A stretch of DNA of 64,000 nucleotides from a bacterium (GTDB lineage: Bacteria; Bacteroidota; Ignavibacteria; Kapaibacteriales; UBA7675): assembly GCA_030430495.1 (NCBI GenBank), contig JAUIKM010000001.1, positions 202,447 to 266,446 on the forward strand, written 5' to 3'. The position numbers were made by a program, and so were the translations under genes. Positions 4,055-63,261 of the stretch are shown here, piece by piece. The notes beneath the pieces were generated by a model, which did not search any database, was not told the origin of the DNA, and saw only the letters and a program-made list of their open reading frames with translations. Numbering within the stretch: position 1 is the first letter of the stretch; each line of letters starts with the position of its first letter.

Positions 4055-4128
4055 GCCGCAAAACGCCCGGTTGTTTTTCCGCAATACGCGTGTTGCAAGA
4101 ACTCCGGAAATTGAATCTTTCAATTACA

Positions 4129-17628: not shown

Positions 17629-19032
17629 TCAGACCGGGAATTTCAAGGTGAAGGTCGAACCTTTGTCGAGTTCACTTTCGACGCTGACTGAGCCCTTGTA
17701 CATTTCCATGACGTGTTTCACGATGGCCAGGCCAAGACCGCTGCCGCCGAGTTCACGTGAACGCGCTTTGTCGACGCGGTAGAAACGTTCAAAAATACGG
17801 CCCAGATCTTCCTTCTTGATGCCGCGGCCGGTGTCGGCAACCTTGATGATGCACTTGCCGCCTTCGAGGAAAGAATGCACCGTAACGGAGCCTTTTTCCG
17901 TGTATTTAACAGCGTTGTCCATCAGGTTAATAATGGCTTTGTCGAGGTGGTAGGTGTCGACGAGCAGCCTGAAGTCCACGGGCAGTTTATTGTCGTAGTT
18001 AAGCGCCAGGCCTTTGTCGCGCGCCTTGCGGTTGAAGTCTTCCAGCAGGTTGCGAATGTAGTCTTCCAGGCGAATATAACGCTCGTCGCGGCTCTGCTGA
18101 TAGGATTCCAGACGCGAAAGGTCGAGCATGTCGTTGACGATTATTTCCAGGCGTTCAACGTTGGAAAGGGCGCGTTCCAGGAAACGGCGATTAACCTGTT
18201 TGTTTTCGAGCGCGCCGTCCAGCAGTGTTTCAACGTATCCCTTGATGGCGCTTACCGGCGTTTTTAACTCGTGTGAAGCGTTGGCGATAAAGTCGCGGCG
18301 CACTTCCTGCACGCGTTCGTATTGCTCGATGTTTGAGCGAAGTTTCTCGCCCATCGATTTAATCGAGCGGCCCAGTTCGCCGATTTCGTTGCGCTGATTG
18401 ATGTCCGGCGTCGTCGAGTAGTTTCCGTCGGCAATCCGTTTGGTCATGCCGATGAGATGTGAAATCGGCCGCGTTAAATAACGCGAGAGATTAAGAATGG
18501 AAAGCAGGGCAATGAGTGAGGAGACGGTGGCGGCGATTACGAGAATGAAGCGGATCTTGAGCACGTTGTCATCGATAAAATCGAGGTCGTGAGCGATCCG
18601 GATAATATAACCGCTGGGAGCGTCGTAGGCGGTGTAAAGCAGGTTCTGCTGTAGCGTCTGACTGTATCGACGCGAGTTGCCGAAGTGATCCGGGCTGTTG
18701 AGCGCCTGAACGACCTCGTCGCGTTCGATGTGATTTTCCAGCGGTGTTTCATTAACATCGACGCGCGTATCCAGGATCACATTCCCGACGCTGTCGATAA
18801 GCGTAACACGGGCCCCGACGTAACCGGCCAGTCGATCGACAACGGCGTAGGAGTTGCCGTTGTACTGCAGCAGCGACTCATCAATGAGCTGGCACTGCGT
18901 TTTCATGTTTTCGACCAACTGGTCCTGCATATTTTGCTGCAGCAGATTTTCCGCCGTCAGCAGCAGAACCAGTGAACAGACCAGATAGAGACCGATGAAG
19001 ATTATCGAAAGCTGGGAATGGACTTTGCGCAT
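17629..19032 (-). CDS. Sensor histidine kinase (PhoR/EnvZ-like; 2 TM, HAMP, HisKA, HATPase_c)
   Basis: H-box ASHELKTPVSAIKGY. ATPase GGSGLGLAIVKHVMEMYKGSVSVESELDKGSTFTLKFP. It is immediately downstream of the response regulator. Confidence 0.9.
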   Translation of the reverse strand: MRKVHSQLSIIFIGLYLVCSLVLLLTAENLLQQNMQDQLVENMKTQCQLIDESLLQYNGNSYAVVDRLAGYVGARVTLIDSVGNVILDTRVDVNETPLENHIERDEVVQALNSPDHFGNSRRYSQTLQQNLLYTAYDAPSGYIIRIAHDLDFIDDNVLKIRFILVIAATVSSLIALLSILNLSRYLTRPISHLIGMTKRIADGNYSTTPDINQRNEIGELGRSIKSMGEKLRSNIEQYERVQEVRRDFIANASHELKTPVSAIKGYVETLLDGALENKQVNRRFLERALSNVERLEIIVNDMLDLSRLESYQQSRDERYIRLEDYIRNLLEDFNRKARDKGLALNYDNKLPVDFRLLVDTYHLDKAIINLMDNAVKYTEKGSVTVHSFLEGGKCIIKVADTGRGIKKEDLGRIFERFYRVDKARSRELGGSGLGLAIVKHVMEMYKGSVSVESELDKGSTFTLKFPV

Positions 19033-19770
19033 TTAGTCAATCAACTGAACAAATTTGTAGCCGACGCCCTGAACGGTTTGAATGTGCCGGGCATAGTTGT
19101 TGAGTTTCTTGCGAATCTTCGTGACATGCACGTCGACCGTCCGTTCAATCTGATAGGCGTCTTCACCCCAGACATTATACAGGAGGTCCTTGCGGGAGAA
19201 GACAATACCCGGACGTTTCATCAGAAAATACAACAAATCGAACTCTTTGGGCAGAAGTTTGATCTCGACTTCGGCGACTTTGACGGTATAACTGAGGCGA
19301 TCTATCTCAACTTCGCCGATTTTGATGATTTCCTTGTCTGCGCCGCGGAACTTGTTAAGGCGCTCTTTCTGGCGGAAAATAGCGCGCACTTTGGCGGTGA
19401 TAACGCGCGGGCTGAATGGTTTGGTCAGGTAGTCATCCGCACCCAACTCAAGGCCGAGCACTTCGTCCACTTCTTCGGATTTGGCCGTCAGGAACACAAC
19501 GGATGCGTTCTTCAGCTTGGAATTCTGGCGCAGGGCCTTGCACACTTCGTAGCCGTCGAAGCCTGGCATCATGATGTCGAGCAGGATTACTTCGGGCATC
19601 ACGCGGTCCGCTATCGTCAATGCGTCCTTGCCGTTGTCCGCGGTGTAGACCTTGTATCCTTCGTTGCCGAGATTATACGAAAGGATCTCAAGAATATCGC
19701 GTTCGTCGTCGACGCAAAGAATGATTTTGTCTTTTTTCACGACTGCTGCACTCCTGCTGTATAAAAGCAT
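19033..19770 (-). CDS. OmpR/PhoB-family response regulator (REC + winged-helix)
   Basis: KIILCVDDERDILEILSYNL...ILLDIMMPGFDGYEVC. Winged helix LLPKEFDLLYFLMKRPGIVFSRKDLLYNVWG...VDVHVTKIRKKL. The ORF-track N-terminal 68 aa are probably not translated; the start is the ATG at 19770 or the GTG near 19738. Confidence 0.85.
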   Translation of the reverse strand: MLLYSRSAAVVKKDKIILCVDDERDILEILSYNLGNEGYKVYTADNGKDALTIADRVMPEVILLDIMMPGFDGYEVCKALRQNSKLKNASVVFLTAKSEEVDEVLGLELGADDYLTKPFSPRVITAKVRAIFRQKERLNKFRGADKEIIKIGEVEIDRLSYTVKVAEVEIKLLPKEFDLLYFLMKRPGIVFSRKDLLYNVWGEDAYQIERTVDVHVTKIRKKLNNYARHIQTVQGVGYKFVQLID

Positions 19771-20420
19771 GATTTGAGACGTTCGTGCCCGATTTGCCGT
19801 GCACAAACTGAATTTGTTGATCGCCTGTGCGCGAATTTCCGGCTTAAACAGATCCGTCTGACGGGCTGCTCGCTCGCTGAAATCCGTCGTTTTTGCTGTG
19901 ACCTGGAAGAATCTGTGGTGGCGGGGAATGTGCGGAAGTAACCAGGAGGGGTGTTTAAAGACGATGCGCTGCATTGCAGACGCAGTTCTGCCGGCGGACG
20001 CGTTGCCGCCGTCGGATTCGACGCATTGCGCCCATTCTCACCTGAATCGGCCTGCCGCGTCCGCACCTGCCGAAAGGAAGGCGCGAGTCGCTCTGACTTT
20101 TGTCGATCGGACAGGTCCAATCCAATGCGGGCTGACGTCATAGATTCCTTACCGCCGGACAATCATTGTCTTTCTGCTGCAAAAATATGTCCTTTATGTA
20201 AACCTCATGTTTGTCACATATTAATAAGGTGTAAAATGGCCGGAACGCAAAACGGCGGCGCAGATTGTTGCGTCGCCGTTTCAGCTTCGTTTCGCTGTGG
20301 AGCAAGGCCCGCCGTCGGGTGGAGATCGGCGCAAGCTGCGTCTGCACGGCTCATCCGGCACCGAAATTGCCGCGTCCGAATCACCGATCAGGCGCCCTTG
20401 GCCGGCCGGGCCGATTGACC

Positions 20421-30295: not shown

Positions 30296-31087
30296 ATGGT
30301 GCAGGAAAAGGATCGCGAGGGCGCACTGCCGCTCTCGGTGGCCATCATTACGTTGAACGAGGCGGCCAATCTGCCGCGCACGCTGGAGTCCATTCGGTCG
30401 CTGGCAAGCGAGATTATTGTGGTTGATTCGGGGTCACAGGACGAGACCTGCGCACTTGCCGCCTCGTACGGTGCACGGGTTGAGTTCCGCGCCTGGACGG
30501 GGCACATCGATCAAAAAAATCACGCACTTGGACTTTGTTCGCAGGAGTGGGTCCTTGCACTCGACGCCGATGAGGAGCTCACGCCGGAGTGCGCCGCCTC
30601 CATTCGTCGCGCCGTCACGGACAATCGGGGCGCTGCGTGGCGCATCAATCGCCGCACGTTTTATCTGGGGAAACTGTTGAGATATTCCTGGCAGCCGGAC
30701 CGCAAACTGCGGTTGGTACGGCGCGATACGGGCGCGCGCTGGAGCGGCTACGATCCACACGACAAATTGGTGGTGGAGAACACAACTGTCGGCGATCTTA
30801 GCGGCGATGTGATCCACTATTCCTATCGCGACCTGCAGGACCACATGGAACGCAGCGTGCGCTACGCCAAAATCAGCGCGACGAGTTACGCGCGCATGGG
30901 CCGCCGTTTTTCCTTTGCCCGCCTGCTGATCAATCCCTTGTTTGCTTTTGTGAAAAAATACTTCCTGCGTCGCGGATGTCTGGACGGCTGGCGCGGTCTG
31001 CTTGTGGCCGGCAGCGCGGCCTGGTCCGTGGCGCTCAAATACTGGTTTCTGCGGGAGCTGGAGCAGCGCGACACACTGAACGATTAA
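30296..31087 (+). CDS. Family 2 glycosyltransferase (LPS-core-type, KdtX/WaaE-like)
   Basis: LSVAIITLNEAANLPRTLESI...IIVVDSGSQDET...LALDADEEL (DxD). The ATG at 30296 is preferred over the TTG at 30266. Confidence 0.8.
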   Translation: MVQEKDREGALPLSVAIITLNEAANLPRTLESIRSLASEIIVVDSGSQDETCALAASYGARVEFRAWTGHIDQKNHALGLCSQEWVLALDADEELTPECAASIRRAVTDNRGAAWRINRRTFYLGKLLRYSWQPDRKLRLVRRDTGARWSGYDPHDKLVVENTTVGDLSGDVIHYSYRDLQDHMERSVRYAKISATSYARMGRRFSFARLLINPLFAFVKKYFLRRGCLDGWRGLLVAGSAAWSVALKYWFLRELEQRDTLND

Positions 31088-31467
31088 CCGCGCGCGACTC
31101 ACTTAAACATATCTCTGTTTAACCCTGATGACTTTTTTGTTAACCATCGGGTGCGAAACGCCGATTCATTGCGGGAGAAGTCTGCGGCGCTCCGCGCCGC
31201 CTTGTCGGCGGGCTGGAAGCAGCCGAGTCTGTTTTCCAGCCGGGAAACCTGAATGCCGGTAGTCCAGTTAATCCACATAAAAACATTGAGATCCGGATTG
31301 GATCTATTGCACACCGAACTGCCGCGACGTGATTGTCCTGTGCACGTAATTCCACGAAATGATGTCCGTTTAACAGCGAAAATCAACCGTTCACACAGAT
31401 TTCCGGCTACGTTCAGTTTTTCAGCACTTGAATTGAAAGATGTTGCTTGTATACTGCAGGCGATAGA

Positions 31468-31640
31468 TCGCGCGCCGGCAGCGAGAATCCGCGACCGAAT
31501 GACTCAAAAAAATCTGCACTGATGCAGGGTGGGAGGAGTGCGTTTGAGCGTGGAGGTATCACCCGTGGCGGCGGCGGGGAGGTCCCCTGATCTAGCCGGA
31601 AGTACGCCCAAAAATGTTCAAGCTCCCGCTCAACACAAAC
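31468..31640. repeat. Dispersed conserved intergenic element, family B copy 2 (long form with shared 40-nt 5' extension cgcgcgccggcagcgagRatccgcgaccgaatgactc)
   Basis: Near-identical to 52902-53070 over ~165 nt and to 10370-10495 over ~105 nt. Confidence 0.6.
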
Positions 31641-31956
31641 AAACGCCCGCACAGCCACCTATACCGCCCGCTGATCGACTCTCTCAGTTTCACCGGACAA
31701 CGCGGCGTTCAAAATCTGCACCTCACCCGAACGGCCGGTCGTTCGCGATTAACTCCGCGACAAAACCTGCGAGCGTCTCGTTGGTTCCGACGTCCGGACA
31801 TACCTGAGCGATGCCGAAGCTCCGGCGCAGATGAAAAAGGCGCTACAGCGGCCGAGACACAAACGCGAATACATCAAACGCGATGACCCATTCCCTTAAT
31901 CAATTGATTTGAACGCGTCGCCGACCCGGGGCGCGGGGGATTTATGTGTTGCGTTG

Positions 31957-32130
31957 GATTTGGGCTCGATGACTTTGGGCTCGACGGCTGGTTCCGGGAC
32001 TCGGCCGCTTCGCACCGGTCACGCACGCGGGACCTGGAGGTTTTGGGCTCGACGGCTGGTTCCGGGACTCGGCTGCTTCGCACCGGTCACGCACGCGGGA
32101 CCTGGAGGTTTTGGGCTCGACGGCTGCCCG
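31957..32130. repeat. Tandem direct repeat, 68-nt unit (ttgggctcgacggctggttccgggactcggcYgcttcgcaccggtcacgcacgcgggacctggaggtt) x ~2.4
   Basis: Two full units differ by a single C/T, plus a truncated third. It lies in the 1.2-kb non-coding region upstream of the 32276 kinase gene. Confidence 0.75.
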
Positions 32131-32275
32131 ATGACTCTGAACTTCTGACTCTGTGGCAAACAAGAAGCGGCTGTTGCATAATCAGAAAGAATGATCGGGC
32201 GTGTTTGACAATGTCAGGTGAGTTGCGTTTATTGCCGCGCAGTCCGGTTTCGGCACCAGGTGGAATCCAATTTCC

Positions 32276-34573
32276 GTGAATAAACCACAAAAGAGACTTA
32301 TCGATCGGGCGGCATCCCTGTTTGAAGCCGATGAGCCTGCGCATCTGTGTATCGCCGCCGACGGAAGAGTATTGGAGGCGGACGACGCTGCGGTGGAAAT
32401 GCTGGGGCGGCCGCGGTCCGATCTGACCGGCCGCGTCTATCGCGATATTCTTGTCTTACTCGATCCGCAGAGCCGCAGCTACATCCAGCATATCGTCGAA
32501 GAGTGTCTGTGCGGTGCGCCCGACAACAGCTTGCGACGCGCGTGCATGCTGGCCCTCCAGAGCGGTCGCGAACTGGCTGTCCGCGTAGAGTTGCGCCTGC
32601 TGTGCGAATCCGGTGCGCGCGTGGCCTTTGTGCGACTGCGACGCATTGAGCGAATTGAAGCGGCAGCAGAGCCGCGGATTGCACGACAAATCAGTCATTA
32701 CAGCGCCTCGCTGGACCTCATGCCGGACAGCATCTGTGAACTGGATCGCAACGGAACGATCCTGTTTCACAATCATCCGCCGCTGGGGCTGCCGGCCATC
32801 GATTATCGCGGCCGCAATCTGTTTGACCTGCTCGAAGAAAATATGCGCCACATTCTGCGGCGCGCACTCGATCAGGCGCATGCCGGCGGCAAAGCCGCGC
32901 CGTTTGAAATCCGCAGCAAGGTGGACGGCCGCACGCGCTGGTGGAACGGCATTGTGATTCCGCACGAAGTCGACAGCGGCATCCGCCGGTTTGTCTGTCT
33001 GGGACGCGACGTCAGCGCCGCCCGCCAACTTCAGGAAGAACGCGAGCGGCACCTGCGCGCGCTGCAGGAACTGGACCGGCTGAGTCGCCGGATGGCGGCG
33101 ATGCAGGACGTGGACGATATCGACGACACCATTGCGGATGCGCTGCGCTCGATGCTTGACTGCGATCGCGTTTACCTGCTGGCGCTCGACCGCGACACAA
33201 TGCGCGAGGCGGACGTGGTGGCCGAATCGCGCGGCGAACAAATGGAAACGCTGACGCCGGACCGCCGACTACACCTGACTGACGCGGTGGCCGCGCGCTT
33301 CCGCCAGGTGTTTTCATCGGGTGTGACGCTGCGCTTTGATCCGGAAACCGGTCGGCAGATTCAGCACCCCGCACAGGAAGACGCGGCCGGCAGCGAGATG
33401 CCTACCTGCGTCACGGAACAGCCAAACGGCATCTGGTTTCTGGGCGCGCACAGTTCCGATGCGGCGCGTGTCTGGCGCACCTGGGAGTTCAGGCTGATTC
33501 GCAATGTGGCCGAGCGCCTTGATAATCATATTCAGCGCATGCTGCTGCTGCGCGCCCTGCGGCGCAACGAACACCGCTTTCGCGTGCTGGCGGAGATTGC
33601 GACCGATTTCTGTTTTCACGTGGTCATTGACAAAACCGGTGCGGAGAACATCCTGTGGCACACGGATGCGGTGCGGGAATTTACGGGGTTTTCAGCCGCC
33701 GAACTGGCCGCCAACGGATTGCTGAAAACGCTGTTCGGCGCGGAGAGCGAGCGCGTGGTGGAACATCTGCGCGTCGGACGTTTTCCGGAGCGTCGCGAGC
33801 GCACATGGCGGCCGGAACGCGCGCGCAAACGCCAGGTTGTCGACATGCTGCGGGCGCGCAGGCAGGACGACGGCTTTCACATTTTTGGCGCGATCCGCGA
33901 TGTCTCGGCGCACTATGCCATCCAGGAGCGGCTTCAGGCGGGAATGATTGAGCAGGAAGCAATGGTGCGGGAGATTCATCACCGCGTTAAAAACAACCTG
34001 CAAATTGTTTCCAGTTTGTTGAATATCCAGATGCGAACAATCAAAGAAGAGCATTATCGTTCGATCTTTCGCGAAAGCCGCTCCAGGATTCGCAGCATGG
34101 CTCTGATTCACGACAAACTGTACCATTCAGACAACCTTGCCCGCATCGACTTCAGCACCTATGTGCACAGCCTTGTGCGCGAACTGCGCCGCAGCTTCGG
34201 ATTGCGCGAAGGCAGCGTGGCGACCGACGTTGACATCGACCATCTTTACCTGGGTGTACAACAGGCCGTACCCTGCGGACTCGTAATCAACGAATTGGTC
34301 AACAATTCCCTGAAGTACGCGTTTCCGGAGGAGTGGCGCGGCGGCGGCCGCCAGGCGCGAATCAACATCGCCATGCGAGTCGATCCCGACGAAGCCGGCC
34401 GCACGTATCGCCTGACAATTTCCGATAACGGGGTGGGGCTGCCCGCAACGGCCACGACGACGCCCAGGCATACCGCCATCGGACTGCAATTGGTGAACAT
34501 GTTACTCAAGCAGATCGACGGCACGCTGCGTGTTGACAGACAACATGGCACATCCTGCGAGATTCGATTTTGA
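32276..34573 (+). CDS. PAS/GAF sensor histidine kinase of the HisKA_2 (HWE/'IHHRVKNNLQ') family
   Basis: Phosphoacceptor box EIHHRVKNNLQIVSSLLNIQ. ATPase: GLVINELVNNSLKYAF...ISDNGVGLP...GLQLVNMLLKQIDGTL. N-terminal PAS-like segments. Confidence 0.85.
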   Translation: MNKPQKRLIDRAASLFEADEPAHLCIAADGRVLEADDAAVEMLGRPRSDLTGRVYRDILVLLDPQSRSYIQHIVEECLCGAPDNSLRRACMLALQSGRELAVRVELRLLCESGARVAFVRLRRIERIEAAAEPRIARQISHYSASLDLMPDSICELDRNGTILFHNHPPLGLPAIDYRGRNLFDLLEENMRHILRRALDQAHAGGKAAPFEIRSKVDGRTRWWNGIVIPHEVDSGIRRFVCLGRDVSAARQLQEERERHLRALQELDRLSRRMAAMQDVDDIDDTIADALRSMLDCDRVYLLALDRDTMREADVVAESRGEQMETLTPDRRLHLTDAVAARFRQVFSSGVTLRFDPETGRQIQHPAQEDAAGSEMPTCVTEQPNGIWFLGAHSSDAARVWRTWEFRLIRNVAERLDNHIQRMLLLRALRRNEHRFRVLAEIATDFCFHVVIDKTGAENILWHTDAVREFTGFSAAELAANGLLKTLFGAESERVVEHLRVGRFPERRERTWRPERARKRQVVDMLRARRQDDGFHIFGAIRDVSAHYAIQERLQAGMIEQEAMVREIHHRVKNNLQIVSSLLNIQMRTIKEEHYRSIFRESRSRIRSMALIHDKLYHSDNLARIDFSTYVHSLVRELRRSFGLREGSVATDVDIDHLYLGVQQAVPCGLVINELVNNSLKYAFPEEWRGGGRQARINIAMRVDPDEAGRTYRLTISDNGVGLPATATTTPRHTAIGLQLVNMLLKQIDGTLRVDRQHGTSCEIRF

Positions 34574-34610
34574 GTGACCATTCGCACACGGAATTCCGGA
34601 GAAGCCAGTT

Positions 34611-37600
34611 ATGCCGGACACCAGCATTCTGCTCGTAGAAGACGAAGCGATTATCGCGCACGATATCAGCGATTATCTGCGTTCGCGCGGCTTCCGCGTC
34701 AGCGGCCCGGCGGACAGCTACGGCGATGCCCTGAACCTGGCGCGGGCTGAACGGCCCGACGTAGCCTTAATCGACATCAGGCTGAAACACTCCGGCCGCG
34801 ACGGCATCGATCTTGCCGGCGCCCTGGCGCAGTACGACATACCAACCGTCTTTCTGACTTCGCATTCAGACGACAATACTCTTGAGCGCGCCCGGCAGAC
34901 GCGGCCCTACGCCTACGTCCTGAAACCCTATAACGAACGCGAACTCGAGCTGGCGCTCACAACGGCCGTGCAGCGCAGCAAAGCCGACCGGGAAGGGCGG
35001 CGTCTGCAGCAACTCATGTTTGCGGTCCTGGGCAGTGTGTCCGACGCGCTGATCGCCCTGGCGAGCGACGGCAGCATAGTGTTTTCCAACGATGCGGCCT
35101 GCGCCCGCTTCGGGCTCAATTCAGACGCCATCGCCGGTCGTCGCATCGTCGACATCATCGAGTTTGGCCCGATGGAGGGCGGCGCGCGTCGTGCGCCGGA
35201 TCCGGACTTCCTGGCGCGCAGCGCCGCCGGCTCGGAACCACAACGCGGCCTGCTGTTTTGCGGAACATCTCCGGGCGTGCCGGTCGAACTGAGCGTTAAA
35301 GCGGTTCAAAACTCGGAGCCGCTCTCCTTCATGTTGTCCATAGCGGACATCAGCGCCGAACACCAGGCCAACCTGGAACTCAAGCGTCGCAGCGCGTTTC
35401 TGCGCACGGTGGTCGACGGAATCCTTGACTCTTTGCTTGTCATCGAGGTTGATGCCGATCAGCGCCTGAAATGCTCCTACGTCAACCCGGCTTATACCGA
35501 ACTCACCGGACAGCGCGCGGACGAAATCGAAGGCGGAATGCTCGAAGATTTCATGCCCAAGCAAGACCTCGAACGACTGCGCCCCCAGGTCCTGAACCTG
35601 GTGGAAACCGGCGTCCCACGAAAATTCGAGACGGAGGTGCTGACTCCATCCGGCCCCAAACCGATGATTACCCAGCTGACGCGCGTGGAAGTACGCGACG
35701 GCATCACGACCATCGTCGCGGCGCGACGCGATATCAGCGCTCAGCGACAGGCTGAAACCACGTTGCAGTATCGCTTCAGGCTGGAACAGCTAATCTCCGC
35801 CATATCAAAGGGTTTCGTCAGCTCAGAGCTGCACATGCTCGACCGCGAAATCGTCAACGCGCTGGAAAATGTGTCGCGTTTCATGGGTTTTTCGGTCGCC
35901 GCCGTCTTCCAGCTGGACCCCGAGTCCGAGACGCTGCGCAACCAACACCGCTGGGCGGCCGAAACCGCCGGTGCCGGCGCGCTCGAGTTCGATGACGGGA
36001 TTTGTCGCGAACTCACGGCAAACATGGACAGCAACAGTCCCGTTCTCCTGCATGCCGGCGATTTGGCGGACTCCGCATTGCTCCACGCCTGGATGCGGAC
36101 ACATGACATCCAGCGTGTCCGGCTGCTGCCGCTCAAAGCCGAGCAAGGCATCTTCGGCATGCTGCTCTTTGGTGAAAACAGCCCCGACGTCAGCCTCGAC
36201 ACACATGCCAACGCCGGAATCGAAATTATTGCCGAGCTCATCGCCAATGCCGAAACGCGCCGACGCATCCACATGAACCTCCGCAAAAGCGAGGACTACC
36301 TGACTCTGGCTCAGAACGTCGCCGGCATTGGAAGCTGGGAGTACAGCCCCGGCAGCAACATCACGACCACCGGTGAAGAACTGGACAAACTTTTTGGACT
36401 GACGCGCAAAAACAAACCGCAGACATTCCGCGCCTGGCGCAAGGTCATCCACGAAGAAGACCGCAACCGCGTGGTGACCGGGATTATCAATGCCCTGCGC
36501 GACGGCAAACACTACTCCACCATGTACAGGATTGTCCGTTCCGACGGCGAGTCGCGCTGGCATCAACTGAAGGCGCGCGTTGTGCGCGACATTTTCGGCG
36601 AAAACAAACTCATCGCCGTCAACTATGACATTACCGACAGAAAAGTCAGCCGAGACAAACTCCAGGCCAGCGAGCGGCGCTACCGTCAGCTGGTTGAAGC
36701 GACGCCCGACGGCATCATCGTGCACCGCCGCAATCGCATTCTCTATTCCAATCCGTCCGCGGCCCGCATGCTGGGGGCGGACAAACCGGCCGATCTCGTG
36801 GGCATGGCCGTCATGGATTTTGTGCACCCCGACTATCGCGAGTTCGTCGCCAGACGCGTCGCCGAAGTGCAAAACAGCAGTGTTGCCGCGCCGCTGGCGG
36901 AAGAAAAACTGCTGCGGATGGACGGCACGCCCATCGACGTGGAAATTGTCGGTATTGCCGTTCGATACGATGAAGAATCGGCCACTCAGGCGATCATCCG
37001 CGATATTACCGAACGCAAACTGACGCAGCTGCGCCTGCGCGAAAGCGAGGAAAAACTGCGCCTGATGGTCGAGCACGCCAACGATACGATCTTCACGCTG
37101 CGCCCCGACTACGAAATCAGCTACATCTCGCCGGCTATCCAGAATCAGCTCGGTTTCGAGCCCGAATTTCTGATCGGTCGGCCGCTGCAACGCTGGGTGC
37201 ACGGCGAGGACATGACCGCCCTGGAAGCCGCCCTGGAGACGCTGGAAGCGCGGCCCGAAGAACGCATCGAAGTCGAATATCGCATCCGCAATGTCATGCG
37301 CGAATGGCGCTGGCACTCGACGACGCTCTCGGTTATCACCGACGGTGTCGAGTACATTCAGGGATTTGTCGGCGTGTCCAAGGACATCACGCTGCGCAAG
37401 GAAATGGAGGTGGCCCTGCGCTCCTCCGAGCAGGAAATGCGCAATGTGTTTGAGCATGCCCATGACGCCATCCTGATTCTCGATGAACAGGGCGAGTCGA
37501 TCCTGGATGTCAACGAACGCGCCTGCGAGCTCTACGGCTATACGCGCCGCACATTCAAACTCATGACCCCGGCAGGCCTCGTCGCCGCCTCCGGCGGCGG

Positions 37601-38996
37601 CGACGAGTATTTCAGCGCCACCGTGGCCGGCAAGTCTTTCAACTCCTGCGTCACGACGCACCTGCGAGCCGACGGCGCGGAAGTTGTGCTCGAAGTGCAC
37701 TCGTCCATGATCAGCTTCAGAGGGCGGCCCGCCGTGCTCTGCTCGCTGCGCGACATCACCGAGCGAATGGCGGCCCAGGAGGAAATCCGCAAACTCTCGC
37801 TCGTGGCCAGCAACACCAGCAACGGGGTTGTGATCGCCGGCAGGGAAGGTCGCGTCGAATGGGTCAACGAGGGTTTTACGCGCATCAGCGGCTACCGCCT
37901 GGACGACGTCATCGGTCGTCACCTCGGCGACCTGAAGGCGGGCGCCGCCACCGATCCCGCGGTGCTCACCGACATCGCCGCGGCCGTCAGGCAGGGACGT
38001 CCGTTCGATGCTGAAATCCTGAACTACAATGCCGACGGCGGCACGTATTGGGCGCAGCTCCAGATTGCGCCGATGGAAGGCGTCGAAGATACCGGCGGCG
38101 GCAACTTTGTGGTCGTTCTCACCGACATCACGGACCTCAAACACCACGAAGCCGAGTTGAAAGCCGCCAAACGCGAGCTGGAAGCGTCCAACCAGATACT
38201 CGAAATTCGCGTGGCCGAGCGCACGAACGATCTGCACATGGCCATGCGCAAACTCAGCGAAGCACTCGAAAAGGAAAAACTGCTCAACGACCTCAAATCG
38301 CGCTTCGTCAGCATGGTGTCTCACGAATTTCGCACGCCGCTCTCCAGCATTCTGGGCAGCGCCGAACTGCTCGATCGTTATCTGCTGCGCCTCGACGACA
38401 AAAGCCGCAAGGATCGTTTTCAGCAGATTTATATCGCCGTGGATCGCATGACCGAGATTCTCGACCAGGTCGTTTCGCTGAGCCAGTCGGAAGCTCTGTC
38501 GCAGTCGTTTGAGCCGCGGTCGGTTCCCATGCAGCGCTTTGTGCAGTCCACCGTCCAGCAGTTCAGGTCCGAGCACGCGCCGGAGCGCCGGATCGATTTT
38601 GTACTTTCGGGCGGCGCTACCGATACCGACGAGGCCCAGGTGGACGTCAAACTGCTCGAACCTGCGCTCATCGGCGTGCTGAAAAATGCCGTGCAGTATT
38701 CTCCGCCCGAAACTCGCGTTCTCGTCAGCCTCTACCTGGAGCGCGACGACGTCATTATCCGCGTTTCCGACAGCGGCGTCGGCATTCCGCAGGACGAGGT
38801 CAATCTGATTTTTGAGCCTTTTCACCGCGCGGCCAATGTGGAAATTGTTCCCGGCACCGGACTTGGGCTGGTTTTTGTCAAGCAGTGCGTTGAGCGCCAC
38901 GGCGGCGAAATCACCGTCGAAAGTTCGCTCGGGCAGGGTACCACGATCATTCTGAAACTGCCGCGCCACCTGGCCGAATTGCGCCACTCACCCTGA
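34611..38996 (+). CDS. Giant hybrid sensor kinase: N-terminal REC domain, then multiple PAS/GAF domains, then HisKA + HATPase_c (1461 aa)
   Basis: REC ILLVEDEAIIAHDISDYL...ALIDIRLKHSGRDGIDL. H-box MVSHEFRTPLSSILGSAELL. ATPase GTGLGLVFVKQCVERHGGEITVESSLGQGTTIILKLP. Several PAS-like repeats (e.g. RDITERK motifs recur). Confidence 0.9.
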   Translation: MPDTSILLVEDEAIIAHDISDYLRSRGFRVSGPADSYGDALNLARAERPDVALIDIRLKHSGRDGIDLAGALAQYDIPTVFLTSHSDDNTLERARQTRPYAYVLKPYNERELELALTTAVQRSKADREGRRLQQLMFAVLGSVSDALIALASDGSIVFSNDAACARFGLNSDAIAGRRIVDIIEFGPMEGGARRAPDPDFLARSAAGSEPQRGLLFCGTSPGVPVELSVKAVQNSEPLSFMLSIADISAEHQANLELKRRSAFLRTVVDGILDSLLVIEVDADQRLKCSYVNPAYTELTGQRADEIEGGMLEDFMPKQDLERLRPQVLNLVETGVPRKFETEVLTPSGPKPMITQLTRVEVRDGITTIVAARRDISAQRQAETTLQYRFRLEQLISAISKGFVSSELHMLDREIVNALENVSRFMGFSVAAVFQLDPESETLRNQHRWAAETAGAGALEFDDGICRELTANMDSNSPVLLHAGDLADSALLHAWMRTHDIQRVRLLPLKAEQGIFGMLLFGENSPDVSLDTHANAGIEIIAELIANAETRRRIHMNLRKSEDYLTLAQNVAGIGSWEYSPGSNITTTGEELDKLFGLTRKNKPQTFRAWRKVIHEEDRNRVVTGIINALRDGKHYSTMYRIVRSDGESRWHQLKARVVRDIFGENKLIAVNYDITDRKVSRDKLQASERRYRQLVEATPDGIIVHRRNRILYSNPSAARMLGADKPADLVGMAVMDFVHPDYREFVARRVAEVQNSSVAAPLAEEKLLRMDGTPIDVEIVGIAVRYDEESATQAIIRDITERKLTQLRLRESEEKLRLMVEHANDTIFTLRPDYEISYISPAIQNQLGFEPEFLIGRPLQRWVHGEDMTALEAALETLEARPEERIEVEYRIRNVMREWRWHSTTLSVITDGVEYIQGFVGVSKDITLRKEMEVALRSSEQEMRNVFEHAHDAILILDEQGESILDVNERACELYGYTRRTFKLMTPAGLVAASGGGDEYFSATVAGKSFNSCVTTHLRADGAEVVLEVHSSMISFRGRPAVLCSLRDITERMAAQEEIRKLSLVASNTSNGVVIAGREGRVEWVNEGFTRISGYRLDDVIGRHLGDLKAGAATDPAVLTDIAAAVRQGRPFDAEILNYNADGGTYWAQLQIAPMEGVEDTGGGNFVVVLTDITDLKHHEAELKAAKRELEASNQILEIRVAERTNDLHMAMRKLSEALEKEKLLNDLKSRFVSMVSHEFRTPLSSILGSAELLDRYLLRLDDKSRKDRFQQIYIAVDRMTEILDQVVSLSQSEALSQSFEPRSVPMQRFVQSTVQQFRSEHAPERRIDFVLSGGATDTDEAQVDVKLLEPALIGVLKNAVQYSPPETRVLVSLYLERDDVIIRVSDSGVGIPQDEVNLIFEPFHRAANVEIVPGTGLGLVFVKQCVERHGGEITVESSLGQGTTIILKLPRHLAELRHSP

Positions 38997-39740
38997 TTTT
39001 TTATGAATTCTCTTGTTAGTCGCGCGGTGATCGGGACTGTGTCGCCGCGCTGTTTCGGGTAGTACCGCCGCAAACGCTTAACACACTGTTGGACCTCGTT
39101 CATCCGCCGCTGGTGACCGTTCACACCGATTGTACTTGACAACGAGCGCACAATTTTGTAAATCAGAAGCCGCAAAACACAGGTCTCCACCGCACGTGGC
39201 CCGCTTGAAATCCTGATGGCGAACGACGCAGCGCAACACCCGGCGTGACCTGCGCATCGGTGGACCTCTAACATACATCTCAGCCTGGAACCCACGTTAT
39301 GTTGCATACATCAAACCAACAAAGCCTTGACGGCGAATCGAACGTCCGCAGGATCATCAGTCCAAATTCCGACCAGAATCACATCATAACCTCTATACGC
39401 GGCCGCCGCAGTACCGGCTTTCTGTTGACAAGGCGCAATGCCGACGGTTTGCTGACTACGAACTATCACCTGCGTGACGAACAAGGAAATGTCAGGAAAG
39501 GGCGCGTGGATCAGCAGGCGTCGGACGTAACGTCACCGCCACGCCAATCCGGATCAGATCCCGCGGGGGGAATGAACAGGCAAGAATTTTCGTAACTTGA
39601 TCTCGGTACAGATTCTTTGCGATTGAGTCGTGGCGACAGTGCGGAGTAACAGTCGTATCCGCGTTGCCGTTGTGTGTTTTGATTCCCTGGCTCGATTTTT
39701 GAGCAGTTGCAGCTTTTCGACCGAAGCGGTACATACCTGA

Positions 39741-41639
39741 ATGCGGGACAACGGGCACTACCTGACTGTGGATTCGGCTCTTGCGCGGGCCGAAGTGTTG
39801 CTTGCATCGGAGGACCTTGCGTCCGCCGAGAACATGGCGGCGCACGCCCTGCGTTCACACACCGCGGCATCACCCGCCACCGAAGACCGCATATCCCACG
39901 TGCGCACTCAGGCTCGCATCCTGCTGGTTATCAGCCGTTGTCGACGTCGCAACGACTACAAGGCCGGCTTTGATCTGATGCGCGACATTTGCAATCTCTA
40001 CACATCAATCGGTCGCCGCGATGAAGCGGTCGAAGTCCTCAGGTCCGAGGCGCAACTCATTGAAAAATTTGGTGATACGGAGATTGTCTCCAGTTATTAC
40101 GCTCTGCTTCTGCAGATTCTGACCGAGCTGGACGACCGCGAGACGCTCACTCGAATTCATCTGAAAGCCGGTAATTTTGTCTTTAACCGCGGGCGGTATC
40201 CCGAGTCACGCGCGCACTACGTAGCGGCCCTGAAACTGGCGCGCGACAACCAGTTCGTCCGTCTGGAAGCCGACGCCCACCTCAACATGGGCAACGTTCA
40301 TTGGGCCGGCGGCGATTACGACGAGGCCCTCCAATGTTATCTGCAGGCGGAAGAACACTACAGTCGAATCGGCGAAATACGCGCCCGCGGCGATGTGTAT
40401 AACAATGTCGGTGCGATCTACCTTTACCAGGGCGAATACGCGCTTGTCCTCGAATATTTCCTCAAGGCCCTCAACATCCGCCAGGAAGCGGGCGACTGGA
40501 AACGCGTCGCCGGCTCGCTGCTGAACATCGGCAACGTGTATTTTCACCTGGGGCACGAGGCTTCCGCTTTTGAATACTACCTGCAGAGTAAAAATCTCTA
40601 CGAACGGCACGACGACCGTCCCGGTCTGGCCGAGTTGCTGGTCAATATCGGGGCGGTGTACGAACGCACCAATAACCGCGATCTGGCGCTGCAAGCTTAT
40701 CGCAAAAGCGTTGAACTGCGCAGGGAATGCGGACTGGAAGCGCTGCTGGCCACAACACTGATCAATATTGCCATTGTTCACATGAACAGCGGCGACTACC
40801 AAAGCGCCGTGGAGCACGCGCAGCAGGCGCTGGCGAAAGCGCGGGAGAACAATGATCTGCGCGTGCAGAGCTACGCCATCCATTGCATCGGCGAAGCCAA
40901 AATGAAAAGCGGCGAGCGCCGCGCCGCGCGCGAGCATCTGGAACAGGCGCTCGAAATCCGGCGGCGGCTGGGATACCGCTCCGGCGAGGCCGAAACGCTG
41001 AATGCCATCGCCGAACTGGAAATGATCGAAGACGATCCGGAATCCGCGCTGTCAACAATAGATGAGGCGCTTCTGACCGCGCGCGAGCTGCACGAAAAAC
41101 CGCGCGAACTGGAGCTCCTGCTCAAATCCGCGCGCTGCCGCGAGCAATGCGGCCGGCTGCGCGAAGCTCTGGACGATCACCACAAAGCCAATGAATTGCG
41201 AACGCAGATCGAACGCGACAAAAACAGTCAGCTGCTCACAAACCTGCAGGTGGCGCATCAGATGGAAGACATGCGGCGCAACAAAGACGGCGCTCACCGG
41301 CGCGTGCAGGAGCTGGAACAGGAGATCGGCGCGCTGGAGACACAACGGCGTGCATTGGAAGCGCGCGAGCGGGACCGCAGCGAGTCCTTGCGCGTCATCT
41401 CACACGACCTGCGCAAGTCGCTCAAGAACATCAGCGACGCGCTGCGCCGCCAACCGGAGTCCGTGGAAACCGGCCGAACGACGGCGGCGGGAAAGGACAA
41501 TCGCCATCTGGCCGAGTCGATTCGGCAGACGGGCAAGGTGGTGGCCGGACTGGAAGAACTGTTGATTCCGCCTGTCGCAACCGGCGACAATGGCCTGGAT
41601 GAAAGCGACCGAATTGACACAAAACAAAAAAAGTCTTAA
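39741..41639 (+). CDS. TPR-repeat protein with C-terminal coiled coil and HisKA-like DHp box (RVISHDLRKSLKNIS) but no ATPase domain
   Basis: Multiple TPR units (YNNVGAIYLYQGEYALVLEYFLKALNI..., LLNIGNVYFHLGHEASAFEYYLQS...). An H-box-like motif sits ~70 aa before the stop. There is no HATPase_c, and there are only 130 nt before the next gene. Confidence 0.75.
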   Translation: MRDNGHYLTVDSALARAEVLLASEDLASAENMAAHALRSHTAASPATEDRISHVRTQARILLVISRCRRRNDYKAGFDLMRDICNLYTSIGRRDEAVEVLRSEAQLIEKFGDTEIVSSYYALLLQILTELDDRETLTRIHLKAGNFVFNRGRYPESRAHYVAALKLARDNQFVRLEADAHLNMGNVHWAGGDYDEALQCYLQAEEHYSRIGEIRARGDVYNNVGAIYLYQGEYALVLEYFLKALNIRQEAGDWKRVAGSLLNIGNVYFHLGHEASAFEYYLQSKNLYERHDDRPGLAELLVNIGAVYERTNNRDLALQAYRKSVELRRECGLEALLATTLINIAIVHMNSGDYQSAVEHAQQALAKARENNDLRVQSYAIHCIGEAKMKSGERRAAREHLEQALEIRRRLGYRSGEAETLNAIAELEMIEDDPESALSTIDEALLTARELHEKPRELELLLKSARCREQCGRLREALDDHHKANELRTQIERDKNSQLLTNLQVAHQMEDMRRNKDGAHRRVQELEQEIGALETQRRALEARERDRSESLRVISHDLRKSLKNISDALRRQPESVETGRTTAAGKDNRHLAESIRQTGKVVAGLEELLIPPVATGDNGLDESDRIDTKQKKS

Positions 41640-41772
41640 TATCGCCGCGTTTTGACCGTCCTCGCGGTATAGCTTTTTGCTGTCGCCGTGTAACTGACGC
41701 GGTCGAATTCCTATCCCGGCATCAACGATTTTGATTTGATAACTGTAACACAAAACCTCAGTTGGAGGAAGA

Positions 41773-42396
41773 ATGCGTAAACTCATCATTTTGGCATTGG
41801 CGATGACGCTGGCTCTGCCCGCTGCGTTCAATGCACAAACCTCGGGTAAATCGAAGAATATGCTCACAGCTCTGATCAAGACAACTGCCGGCGATATCAA
41901 GCTGGAATTGTACGGCAAGGAAACGCCGCTTACCGTAGCGAATTTTGTCAACCTGGCGCGCCGCGGATACTACGACGGCATCGTTTTCCATCGCGTTATC
42001 GCCAACTTCATGATCCAGGGCGGCGACCCGACGGGCACCGGCAGCGGCGGCCCCGGTTATCGTTTTGAAGATGAATTTGTGCCGCAGCTGCGTCACAACA
42101 GCGCCGGCATCCTGTCCATGGCCAATGCGGGCCCGGGCACAAACGGCAGCCAGTTTTTCATTACACACCTGCCCACGCCGCACCTTGACGATCATCATAC
42201 GGTCTTCGGCAAAGTTGTGGATGAAGCGAGCCAGGACGCGGTCAACGCCGTTCGCCAGGGCGCTAAAATCGTTTCGGTGACGATTGAAGGCGATGTTCCG
42301 GCCGAAGTCAAAGCAGTTCAAAAACGCGTTGACGAGTGGAACAAAGTCCTCGATCAGAAATTCCCGGACAAACTGAAGCCGGCGACGCCGCTCTGA
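41773..42396 (+). CDS. Cyclophilin-type peptidyl-prolyl cis-trans isomerase, periplasmic (PpiA-like) with signal peptide
   Basis: [31 protein letters not shown]...[36 protein letters not shown]-terminal [22 protein letters not shown]. Confidence 0.9.
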
Positions 42397-42435
42397 TAGT
42401 TTGAGTCGCGGGTGCTGTAGATACCCGCACCAGTC

Positions 42436-42483
42436 AAAACAACAAAGTCCCGCAGCATTGAAGCTGCGGGACTTTGTTGTTTT
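42436..42483. terminator. 18-bp perfect hairpin acaacaaagtcccgcagc-attgaa-gctgcgggactttgttgt with flanking A/T runs, between convergent cyclophilin and LTXXQ genes
   Basis: Inverted repeat read directly. It is preceded by a second short hairpin gcgggt-gctgtagat-acccgc. Confidence 0.65.
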
Positions 42484-42595
42484 AACCCATTTCGATTTTC
42501 CATCGTGCTTGATCACACCCTTGTTCTCTTGCATCATCCTGTTTTACTCTTTCAGGCCACGAATACCGCAGGGGAGTTCAGCGGGCTGCCGCGCA

Positions 42596-43929: not shown

Positions 43930-44553
43930 TTGACCCCGGTTTTTTTTCGTGTAACATCGATATGCCGTCGTGCATTTCTGCTGGAGTCGATGATGAAGTC
44001 AATTGATTATCCGGCTCTGAGTGACGAAGACCTGTTTGAACTGGTCAAGCGTCACAACGACAAAGTCGCCTTCGATGTGCTCTATAAACGCTACGATCGC
44101 CGTCTGTTTTCCTACTGCCTGCGGGCGATGGAAGACCGGGACGAAGCCAAAGATGTGTACCAGCAGGCAATCATGAATATCTATGCCAAGCGGGACACCT
44201 TCAAAGGCGGTAGCTACGTAGCCTGGTTAATGACCATCGTTCGCAATCAGTGCCTGATGGCCAAGCGCGGCAAAAAGTACACGCGCGACGTCGATGAAAT
44301 GCAGAACGTCCTCGTGGCGAGCGACTCCGTCGGCGCGACCGACCACGGACTCAACGAAGCGGTACACAAAGCCGTTGACTCATTACCGGCGGATTTCAAA
44401 GAAGTTGTCGCGATGCGCTACTTCGATGAATTTTCTTACGAACAGATCGCCCAGACACTGGGAATTTCGATGTCTCTTGTCAAAGTGCGTCTGTTTCGAG
44501 CTAAAAAACTGTTGCTTGAAGCACTGTCTCCATATCGGGAGGAGCTTCTATGA
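43930..44553 (+). CDS. ECF-type sigma-70 factor (RpoE-like)
   Basis: Region 2 (YQQAIMNIYAKRDTFKGGSYVAWLMTIVRNQC). Region 4 HTH (VVAMRYFDEFSYEQIAQTLGISMSLVKVRLFRAKKLL). The probable true start is MMKSIDY near 43990. Confidence 0.85.
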   Translation: MTPVFFRVTSICRRAFLLESMMKSIDYPALSDEDLFELVKRHNDKVAFDVLYKRYDRRLFSYCLRAMEDRDEAKDVYQQAIMNIYAKRDTFKGGSYVAWLMTIVRNQCLMAKRGKKYTRDVDEMQNVLVASDSVGATDHGLNEAVHKAVDSLPADFKEVVAMRYFDEFSYEQIAQTLGISMSLVKVRLFRAKKLLLEALSPYREELL

Positions 44554-45479
44554 ATCGCGATGAACTCATGGCAAAATATCTGGACGGCAGCCTCAATGCC
44601 GACGAACAGGCGCATCTGCAGTCACTGCTGGATTCGTCGCCTGAGATGGCCGAAGAGTTGCGCGCGCTGGAAGGGCTGGAACAGGCTCTGGCCGCGGGCG
44701 CGCCGTCGCTGGCCGCCGTCGATCTCGGCTTTCTTGACGAGGTCGGTCGTCGCGCAACGGATATGATTCCGGCTGCGCCGCCCGCGGGAGGCGGTCTGGA
44801 ATCGATCGGCGCCAAACTGGGCGGAAGCATTGCCGCCAAAATCGCCGGTATCGGCGGCGCGATCATCGTCGCCGGCGGCGCAGGTGTCGCCGTCTGGCAG
44901 ATGCAGTCGACCGACGATCTTTCCGCTCCGGCGCAGGCGACGGAGCAAATCGTCACCGACATCGACGAGGCTCCCTCGACGCTGCGGGACCTGGAACAGC
45001 CGCCGGACGAATTGCCGCCGGATGCAACGACACAAGCCGACGACGAGTCGTTTGAACCGCAAGCCGACGTCGAACACAATGCGGCGTCGAATTCACACTC
45101 CGATGCTGACGGCGTCGAAAACATGGATAAAAGCCAGGCGGAAACGCAGTCCGGTTTGACAGATCTGCCGCAAGCGGACGCTCCGACCAACGCAACCACG
45201 GAAGATGCCGAGTCCGGTACGGTGCACGGCGATGTGGAGAGCGAGGCGGCCCTGTTTAATCGGGATCTGCAGCGGCTGAACCAGAAGTTCCGCGCGGCGC
45301 AGACGGCGGGGGACAAAGCGACGCTGGCGCAGACGGCGCTGCAACTGGGCAAGCTGCTGGAAGGGCGCAATGCGGCGGACAGCCGAAAATACTACGAGTT
45401 GGCCGTCAGTTTTGCCGGCAAGGCCGGGCTGCGGGAAGTGGAACAGGCTGCGCGGCTGGCGCTCGACGGCATGAAGTAA
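44550..45479 (+). CDS. Putative anti-sigma factor (N-terminal anti-sigma helix, low-complexity acidic linker, C-terminal TPR-like segment)
   Basis: Its start overlaps the sigma gene stop (ATGA). N-terminus MNRDELMAKYLDGSLNADEQAHLQSLLDSSPEMAEELRALEGLEQAL is typical of RskA/ChrR-type anti-sigma N-domains. Confidence 0.6.
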   Translation: MNRDELMAKYLDGSLNADEQAHLQSLLDSSPEMAEELRALEGLEQALAAGAPSLAAVDLGFLDEVGRRATDMIPAAPPAGGGLESIGAKLGGSIAAKIAGIGGAIIVAGGAGVAVWQMQSTDDLSAPAQATEQIVTDIDEAPSTLRDLEQPPDELPPDATTQADDESFEPQADVEHNAASNSHSDADGVENMDKSQAETQSGLTDLPQADAPTNATTEDAESGTVHGDVESEAALFNRDLQRLNQKFRAAQTAGDKATLAQTALQLGKLLEGRNAADSRKYYELAVSFAGKAGLREVEQAARLALDGMK

Positions 45480-62756: not shown

Positions 62757-63261
62757 CTGTCTATGATCAATAGCTGGAATGTCGATGGGAGTAAGCCGGA
62801 ACGCTGTGCGCCCGGCGCAGCGCGCGGGGTCGGGATTGTTTGGATTGGATGTGTTCCGGCGTTCTGCCGGAAGATTCGAACAAGTATGCATGTCTTTTGG
62901 TCTGCATGCTGAACGTTTTCAGTCGATGTGTCCGGACGGACGCGAATATGGTGCGCCGTCTCGCATGCCCTATTGTGCAATGACCCCTGACAATTCAAAA
63001 GGACACAAAGCGCGCATTCTGCCGTTCGCCTGCGGAAAAGATCGATTCGGACGCGCAGCCTGTGCCCCGCTGTCATTGCGACGTGTTGCCGTCATGTTAT
63101 TGCAATGTAACACTTTGTACGATCAGAGCTGCGCATGATTTTATTCCAAACCCGCTTTTGTTTGTTTTCGGGAGAGAAACAATGCGGCGCCCGCCGGCGC
63201 CGCGTTCAGTTAACAGATTGGCTCCGGACGTCGCGTCATGCGCCGCACCGCCGTCCGGCGC

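Follow-up and report, generated by a model that had tools for sequence, protein, structure and literature searches.

A lineage-restricted cluster of cytoplasmic signalling genes in a relative of Candidatus Kapaibacterium: two adjacent sensor kinases and a kinase-derived TPR protein

Layout and conservation of the cluster

The stretch of DNA described here, 64,000 nucleotides of contig JAUIKM010000001.1 (assembly GCA_030430495.1), referred to below as the window, carries four plus-strand genes that encode cytoplasmic signalling proteins and form a set restricted to one lineage. The source is an uncultured member of the Bacteroidota related to Candidatus Kapaibacterium. Gene 1 encodes a PAS/HisKA_2 sensor kinase, gene 2 a 1461-residue kinase that begins with a receiver, and gene 3 a tetratricopeptide repeat (TPR) protein with a remnant of a kinase at its end. 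The fourth gene, ORF98, is a small open reading frame (ORF) of 98 amino acids (aa) between genes 2 and 3. The original prediction described three consecutive plus-strand genes. The three ORFs were found at the predicted positions and with the predicted lengths and order, but they are not strictly consecutive, as the conserved ORF98 intervenes. The cluster is better described as a probable gene 1-gene 2 operon followed by a separate ORF98-gene 3 unit. Its features are as follows.

32276-34573, plus strand: gene 1, 765 aa, GTG start, soluble sensor kinase
Gene 1, sensor part: PAS at residues ~20-125 (weak), PAS at 141-250, GAF-like segment at ~278-415 (sub-threshold), PAS at ~450-545
33971-34195, plus strand: HisKA_2 of gene 1, residues 566-640 (Pfam)
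34280-34567, plus strand: HATPase_c of gene 1, residues 669-764 (Pfam)
34574-34610, plus strand: 37-bp spacer between genes 1 and 2, with a Shine-Dalgarno-like GGAGAA 8 nt before the gene 2 ATG
34611-38996, plus strand: gene 2, 1461 aa, soluble kinase
Gene 2, domain order: receiver (REC), two PAS, GAF-like segment (residues ~416-547), five PAS, HisKA, HATPase_c
34626-34955, plus strand: Response_reg of gene 2, residues 6-115, N-terminal (Pfam)
38295-38495, plus strand: HisKA of gene 2, residues 1229-1295 (Pfam)
38649-38966, plus strand: HATPase_c of gene 2, residues 1347-1452 (Pfam)
39120-39196, plus strand: conserved non-coding block of ~77 nt, with TTGACA-17 nt-TAAATC and a Bacteroidota-like CAATTTTG motif
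39299-39595, plus strand: ORF98, 98 aa, lineage-specific
39741-41639, plus strand: gene 3, 632 aa, TPR protein without a kinase domain
39768-41147, plus strand: TPR solenoid of gene 3, residues 10-469 (Pfam and structural model)
41382-41426, plus strand: H-box remnant ESLRVISHDLRKSLK of gene 3, with His555 at 41403-41405, on a long helix (residues 473-569)
41655-41678, plus strand: terminator-like hairpin ACCGTCCTCGCGGT, then a T-rich tail, just 3' of the gene 3 stop

A scan of 185,579 species genomes gave only two relatives, the metagenome-assembled genomes (MAGs) GCA_964445695.1 and GCA_028284775.1. In the former, the locus (L003, contig CAYULF010000003.1) is collinear with the window, with genes of equal length and 86-91% aa identity, in the order glycosyltransferase, gene 1, gene 2, 98-aa ORF, gene 3, cyclophilin, coiled-coil protein and extracytoplasmic function (ECF) sigma factor. 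A third close variant, a contig from the European Nucleotide Archive (L010), is also syntenic, at 68-88% identity. The latter MAG belongs to Candidatus Kapaibacterium sp. (Bacteroidota) and carries a protein ending in PAS-HisKA-HATPase_c, followed by an 828-aa protein (P0002) and a cyclophilin. This order matches gene 2, gene 3 and cyclophilin, with identities of 46% (to the gene 2 C-terminus), 35% and 62%, respectively, and the matching neighbours on both sides identify P0002 as the positional orthologue of gene 3. Protein searches gave no orthologues of genes 1 and 2 beyond close relatives, a metagenome scan for further orthologues returned only generic TPR relatives at 20-35% identity, and identical proteins occur only in metagenome assemblies and one NCBI contig. 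The cluster is thus conserved in relatives, its absence from every related genome having been named in advance as an observation that would count against the predicted module.

Genes 1 to 3 are under purifying selection, with ratios of nonsynonymous to synonymous substitution rates (dN/dS) of 0.11-0.16 at a synonymous divergence (dS) of ~0.40-0.46 between the window and L003 (pairwise Nei-Gojobori estimates), which argues that they are real and constrained genes. A sequence scan detected no membrane-span-like segment in any of the three proteins, and they are therefore taken as soluble.

The MAG GCA_964445695.1 is labelled "uncultured Hyphomicrobiales bacterium", and its gene content resembles that of Bacteroidota/Kapaibacteriaceae. 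The context of the window is typical of the Fibrobacterota-Chlorobiota-Bacteroidota group, including TonB receptors that carry CarboxypepD_reg domains, and one protein ends in a sorting tail of the type IX secretion system (T9SS). Given these receptors, the sorting tail and Candidatus Kapaibacterium as nearest relative, the label is probably wrong.

Two complete sensor kinases

Judged by its sequence, gene 1 encodes a catalytically complete PAS/HisKA_2 kinase. Its HisKA_2 domain (PF07568; 96.1 bits, cut-off 22.3, E=1.3e-27) contains the motif EIHHRVKNNLQ, and its HATPase_c domain (PF02518; 35.4 bits, cut-off 26.4) has readable N, G1 and G2 boxes (NELVNNSLKYA, DNGVG, GLQL). The HWE_HK model (PF07536) reaches only 27.8 bits on the same stretch, so that of the proposed "HisKA_2/HWE-type" assignment with IHHRVKNNLQ the HisKA_2 part is retained. 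Selection on the gene is similar in both comparisons (dN/dS 0.14 vs L003 and 0.14 vs L010).

The description of genes 1 and 2 as PAS/GAF kinases is confirmed for PAS, while GAF rests on sub-threshold Pfam matches only: in segment scans, residues 278-415 of gene 1 score 16.4-16.8 bits (E~0.01) and residues 416-547 of gene 2 ~21 bits (E~5e-4), below cut-offs of 22-29 bits. The AlphaFold model of gene 1 has a mean predicted local distance difference test score (pLDDT) of 48 and is unusable outside the kinase core, also for the GAF question. A motif search of genes 1 and 2 found neither the flavin-adduct motif NCR[FI]L nor the CH dipeptide of a chromophore-binding Cys-His. Neither protein appears to be a photosensor of the LOV or bilin-binding type, and haem-type cofactors are not judgeable from sequence.

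Gene 1 adds a new member to the HisKA_2 PAS kinases. It resembles LovK and PhyK, the cytoplasmic HisKA_2/HWE PAS kinases of Alphaproteobacteria, in its HHRVKNN phospho-acceptor and PAS sensors, and likewise has neither a membrane anchor nor an adjacent DNA-binding regulator. Kinases of this type typically phosphorylate stand-alone or atypical receivers. In contrast to them, gene 1 resides in a member of the Bacteroidota, and no PhyR/NepR partners were seen. The NCBIfam PhyK model matches the kinase core only, with 122.6 bits where 750 would be required. As scores stay so far under the NCBIfam cut-offs, gene 1 is not an orthologue of PhyK or of the LOV kinases.

The region upstream of gene 1 differs between genomes. 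The 162 bp directly before the gene are 90% conserved, and a hypervariable stretch lies 150-480 bp upstream (31974-32126 in the window, 1985-2370 in L003). In the window it holds a 68-bp unit in 2.2 copies with 98% matches; at the same place L003 has an unrelated 15-bp unit in 25.7 copies, which has been mis-called as a 180-aa "pentapeptide repeat" protein.

Gene 2 is likewise catalytically complete by its sequence, a HisKA kinase that carries an intact receiver at its N-terminus and seven PAS domains behind it. Its Response_reg, HisKA and HATPase_c domains score 62.2, 54.8 and 87.5 bits against Pfam cut-offs of 30.2, 26.9 and 26.4, which bears out the predicted N-terminal receiver and classical HisKA+HATPase pair. 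Seven PAS domains and one GAF-like segment emerged from segment scans of the sensor part, in agreement with the "at least six PAS/GAF-like modules" expected. The active site of the receiver is complete, with E10/D11, D54 (ALIDIRL), T83 (FLTSH) and K105 (VLKPY), and the N, G1 and G2 boxes of the ATPase domain are readable. The dN/dS values are 0.11 vs L003 and 0.12 vs L010. The only receiver of gene 2 (residues 6-115) precedes all PAS domains and the kinase core instead of following HATPase_c, so the protein is not a classical, strict hybrid kinase. It is better regarded as a new member of the receiver-first multi-PAS kinases, and should be annotated as such.

A 1054-aa ORF on the minus strand (35823-38987) lies exactly codon-antisense to gene 2. 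Its status as a gene was rejected: TTA, CTA and TCA codons are rare (0.5-0.7% of codons, at a GC content of ~0.7 in third codon positions), and gene 2 has none of them from codon 406 to 1459. Long antisense ORFs likewise lie opposite other large genes, for example at 59778-62729 and 2378-4123.

Genes 1 and 2 are probably co-transcribed as an operon. The 37-bp spacer between them is short, is 95% identical to that of L003, contains the Shine-Dalgarno-like motif, and was found to contain no terminator-like site.

The interval between genes 2 and 3

Gene 3 begins 745 bp after gene 2, and this interval contains two conserved elements. The first is the block at 39120-39196, which is 100% identical between the window and L003 even though synonymous sites differ by ~40%; it is nearly identical in L010. 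Beyond 39196 it extends with lower identity to ~39298. Its match to promoter consensus elements makes it a candidate promoter or leader for ORF98 and gene 3. Alternatively, the block could be a small RNA. An Rfam scan of 31000-42500 gave nothing above chance and no hit for the block, and the conserved intergenic block shows essentially no covariation among three sequences only.

The second element is ORF98, which is called as a gene in L003 and L004 and had been missed by the original prediction. Compared with L010, its differences fall 15/15/39 on the three codon positions, and its dN/dS is 0.12-0.26 (0.12 with dS 0.34 vs L003); both observations indicate a genuine coding sequence. The family has one representative only among 1.84 billion proteins. 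ORF98 has no Pfam match, and its weak similarities to heterogeneous Ig, fn3 and HYR repeat proteins are uninformative. An assignment as a YD-repeat protein was dropped.

Gene 3, a TPR protein derived from a histidine kinase

Most of gene 3 is a TPR solenoid. TPR_12 matches eight stretches with 190 bits (E=6e-57), and the AlphaFold model (mean pLDDT 81.5) shows ~23 solenoid helices at a pLDDT of ~90. Foldseek returned only generic peptide-binding LGN/Pins TPR domains (E~1e-13). After the solenoid comes the long helix with His555, which a loop of 13 residues connects to a second helix (583-608); the tail is disordered. From residue 567 on, second helix included, pLDDT falls below 50. A comparison of the C-terminal 163 aa with sequences of the PDB gave coiled-coil noise only (E>0.7).

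The original prediction recognised in this C-terminus an H-box like that of a dimerisation and histidine phosphotransfer (DHp) domain, without an ATPase. The H-box SHDLRK is present, with the motif SESLRVISHDLRKSL placing the histidine at position 555, and Pfam finds no HATPase_c in gene 3; the DHp likeness extends only to the level of the motif. The origin of this remnant becomes clear from P0002, found by a protein search with gene 3 at 35% identity over 87% of the query. P0002 is a TPR-HisKA-HATPase_c protein whose HisKA domain scores 52.1 bits in Pfam. The two proteins align along the TPR array, along the coiled-coil linker (shortened in gene 3 by two deletions) and into the H-box, where SESLRVISHDLRKSL stands against NEFLGITSHDLKNPV; the alignment passes E-x-L-x3-SHDL, and there the similarity stops. 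The two sequences agree at His555, Asp556 and Leu557, and gene 3 has serine in place of the conserved H-box proline. No ATPase remnant was detected in any frame 3' of gene 3 by tblastn with the P0002 C-terminus, and a frameshifted or leftover ATPase domain downstream was thereby ruled out. The other TPR proteins with HisKA in that search all have HATPase_c too, which indicates that the full kinase is ancestral and gene 3 a truncation. Of the kinase core, gene 3 thus keeps no more than the H-box half of helix α1; the ATPase domain and the rest of the DHp domain are gone, and the protein cannot bind ATP.

It has to be considered whether such a remnant is a decaying, functionless pseudogene of a TPR kinase. 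The loss of the catalytic domain and most of the DHp domain would fit this explanation, as would the relaxation of constraint from a dN/dS of 0.14 in the TPR region to 0.32 in residues 546-632. However, the ORF of 632 aa is intact, with the same length and stop position in both genomes and no indels at a dS of ~0.42; the overall dN/dS is 0.16, the TPR model is of high confidence, and dN/dS in the tail stays significantly under the neutral expectation (binomial P=0.005 for residues 546-632 and P=0.016 for 576-632). Equal length, lack of indels and sub-neutral dN/dS indicate that the truncated gene is not decaying, and the pseudogene explanation, highly improbable, is largely refuted already.

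Another explanation takes up the multi-input phosphorelay of the original prediction. The three proteins would form one such relay, and the gene 3 H-box would serve as an HPt-like (histidine phosphotransfer) station, placed between the receiver of gene 2 and an unlinked output regulator. It can point to the retention of His555 with its adjacent acidic residue, the constrained tail, the helix-loop-helix of the gene 3 model, the receiver supplied by gene 2, and the adjacency of genes 2 and 3 kept as far as Kapaibacterium. Against this, HisKA and HPt profiles have no match in gene 3 even at E<=10 (for Pfam HisKA, also with the C-terminal 132 aa), only ~14 helix residues follow the histidine, the second helix is modelled with a pLDDT below 50, and the H-box proline is lost. 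The same place in Kapaibacterium is occupied by an autonomous kinase, so that the adjacency predates any relay role, and the 745-bp gap with its own promoter-like block sets gene 3 off from gene 2. The cluster is also without an HPt domain, and no single-domain receiver or terminal regulator lies nearby. With a vestigial DHp domain, an adjacency older than the truncation and gene 3's own transcription signals, a strict His-Asp-His-Asp relay is unlikely.

Gene 3 falls within a known category, that of incomplete, kinase-derived proteins; the most interesting element of the cluster is the datable truncation together with the lineage-specific small gene. With the TPR histidine kinases (P0002 and the Porphyromonas FimS family, NF053520) it shares the TPR array and coiled-coil linker, and it differs from them in having no HATPase_c and no detectable HisKA; the FimS model matches the TPR repeats only, with 88.8 bits where 600 would be required. 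DivL, Spo0B and ChpT are kinase descendants that have lost autokinase activity and are kept as regulators or phosphotransfer proteins. Like gene 3 they are kinase-derived and non-catalytic, but they keep a complete four-helix-bundle DHp domain and a catalytic and ATP-binding (CA) or pseudo-CA domain, whereas gene 3 ends 77 residues after the histidine with no CA-like domain. Regulators of the Rap/RRNPP type are soluble TPR proteins that modulate two-component signalling through partners bound in the TPR groove. For gene 3, the Rgg_C match is only sub-threshold (E=0.0013, 18.9 bits vs a cut-off of 27) and the best structural matches are the LGN/Pins domains. In annotation, gene 3 should be named neither a kinase nor a phosphotransfer protein. 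It offers a clean, datable case in which a kinase became a conserved non-catalytic TPR protein by truncation, with a full-length orthologue in a sister lineage.

A proposed kinase cascade with a TPR adaptor

Taken as a whole, the cluster is best explained by a kinase cascade of genes 1 and 2 with gene 3 as a non-catalytic TPR adaptor or regulator, a reading to which a probability of about 0.55 is assigned. In this model, kinase 1 would phosphorylate Asp54 of the gene 2 receiver, for which it seems the most economical phosphodonor, and the three PAS/GAF-like inputs of gene 1 would thereby gate the output of the eight-module gene 2 sensor kinase. The result would be a two-tier kinase cascade or a small multikinase network, with its terminal regulator encoded at another locus. 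Gene 3 would have its own promoter, from which ORF98 might be transcribed as well. Its product would no longer autophosphorylate and would act as a pseudokinase adaptor or regulator, binding a partner through the TPR groove and dimerising through the long C-terminal helix. The proposal of one three-component module is thus kept in part: genes 1 and 2 lie close together and the intact receiver of gene 2 is a plausible target for kinase 1, but gene 3 stands apart.

Several points weigh against this model. The Kapaibacterium contig begins inside the gene 2 orthologue, so gene 1 is untraceable there; together with the lack of distant orthologues, this means that the pairing of genes 1 and 2 is shown only over ~0.4-0.8 synonymous substitutions per site. 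That kinase 1 donates phosphate to the receiver of gene 2 is argued from adjacency alone; a distant kinase, or the kinase core of gene 2 itself, could serve this receiver in its place. His555, Asp556 and the constrained tail of gene 3 are compatible with a residual phospho-acceptor role too. The truncated form of gene 3 is represented by only two independent full-length sequences, and the assignment of its promoter is a consensus match only.

A less probable explanation, though one to be taken seriously, is that the three or four genes are independent signalling genes held together by shared ancestry or local order, each kinase having its own unlinked regulator. Soluble PAS-rich kinases are numerous and often orphan, each kinase here possesses all catalytic elements itself, gene 3 comes with promoter-like and terminator-like signals of its own, and more kinase genes lie near the Kapaibacterium locus with no obvious logic. 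However, the conserved 37-bp spacer points to co-transcription of genes 1 and 2, and an N-terminal receiver on a kinase needs a donor, for which gene 1 is the nearest kinase.

Regulation of one kinase by another through DHp helices is established for RetS-GacS of Pseudomonas aeruginosa (PMC8498467), and multikinase networks of this kind are described further elsewhere (PMC5992135, PMC8175716). As in the present proposal, sensor kinases or proteins derived from them act on one another through DHp helices or a receiver. The homology to RetS-GacS is that of kinase domains in general, and the proteins of the cluster differ in being cytoplasmic, PAS- or TPR-based and known from their genes alone; moreover, RetS keeps a full histidine kinase region, whereas gene 3 keeps an H-box stub only. 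The precedent leaves open a decoy role for the His-bearing helix. Gene 3, perhaps with ORF98, might accordingly have been kept for the purpose of pairing this helix with the DHp domain of a full kinase, but such a stub regulator is considered improbable. Its partner, on an equally slim chance, would be the 1461-aa kinase or an unlinked TPR kinase paralogue, and the stub would either block trans-autophosphorylation or be phosphorylated in trans. If true, this would represent a minimal, CA-less form of RetS-type kinase-on-kinase control born of gene truncation, and would add a minimal mechanism to the repertoire of multikinase networks. As the evidence stands, the cluster contains nothing categorically new; it is an ordinary group of signalling genes, gene 3 being its one mildly unusual member, from a lineage that has been poorly sampled.

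Possible outputs and neighbouring genes

The absence of an adjacent output regulator was correctly predicted. The 64-kb window contains only three REC domains: the gene 2 N-terminus, a REC-cyclase at 10611-11732 and an OmpR-type regulator at 19033-19974. The OmpR-type regulator was rejected as an output of the cluster, since it abuts its own HAMP-HisKA kinase (17629-19032). The REC-cyclase is an orphan 20 kb from the cluster, and output candidates inside the window are poor. This minus-strand gene combines a receiver with a class III adenylate/guanylate cyclase and adjoins a Na+/H+ exchanger-TrkA gene; gene 2 aside, its receiver is the only one in the window without an adjacent kinase.

The ECF sigma factor gene at 43930-44553 was also rejected as an output, as it is not kept beside the Kapaibacterium orthologues. 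This plus-strand gene overlaps by 4 bp a 309-aa plus-strand ORF (44550-45479) with no Pfam match, and the two are likely a sigma/anti-sigma pair. The pair lies beside the cluster in the close relative and is absent at the Kapaibacterium locus.

Just 3' of the cyclophilin gene, the Rfam model Thr_leader weakly matches both strands of 42375-42500 (28 bits, E~0.05-0.07, where the gathering score is 55); these matches probably reflect chance or a bidirectional terminator-like hairpin. Farther downstream, a minus-strand gene at 58800-62891 encodes a protein of 1363 aa that contains six DUF4397 repeats, carries a T9SS sorting domain at its C-terminus and is probably secreted or located at the cell surface.

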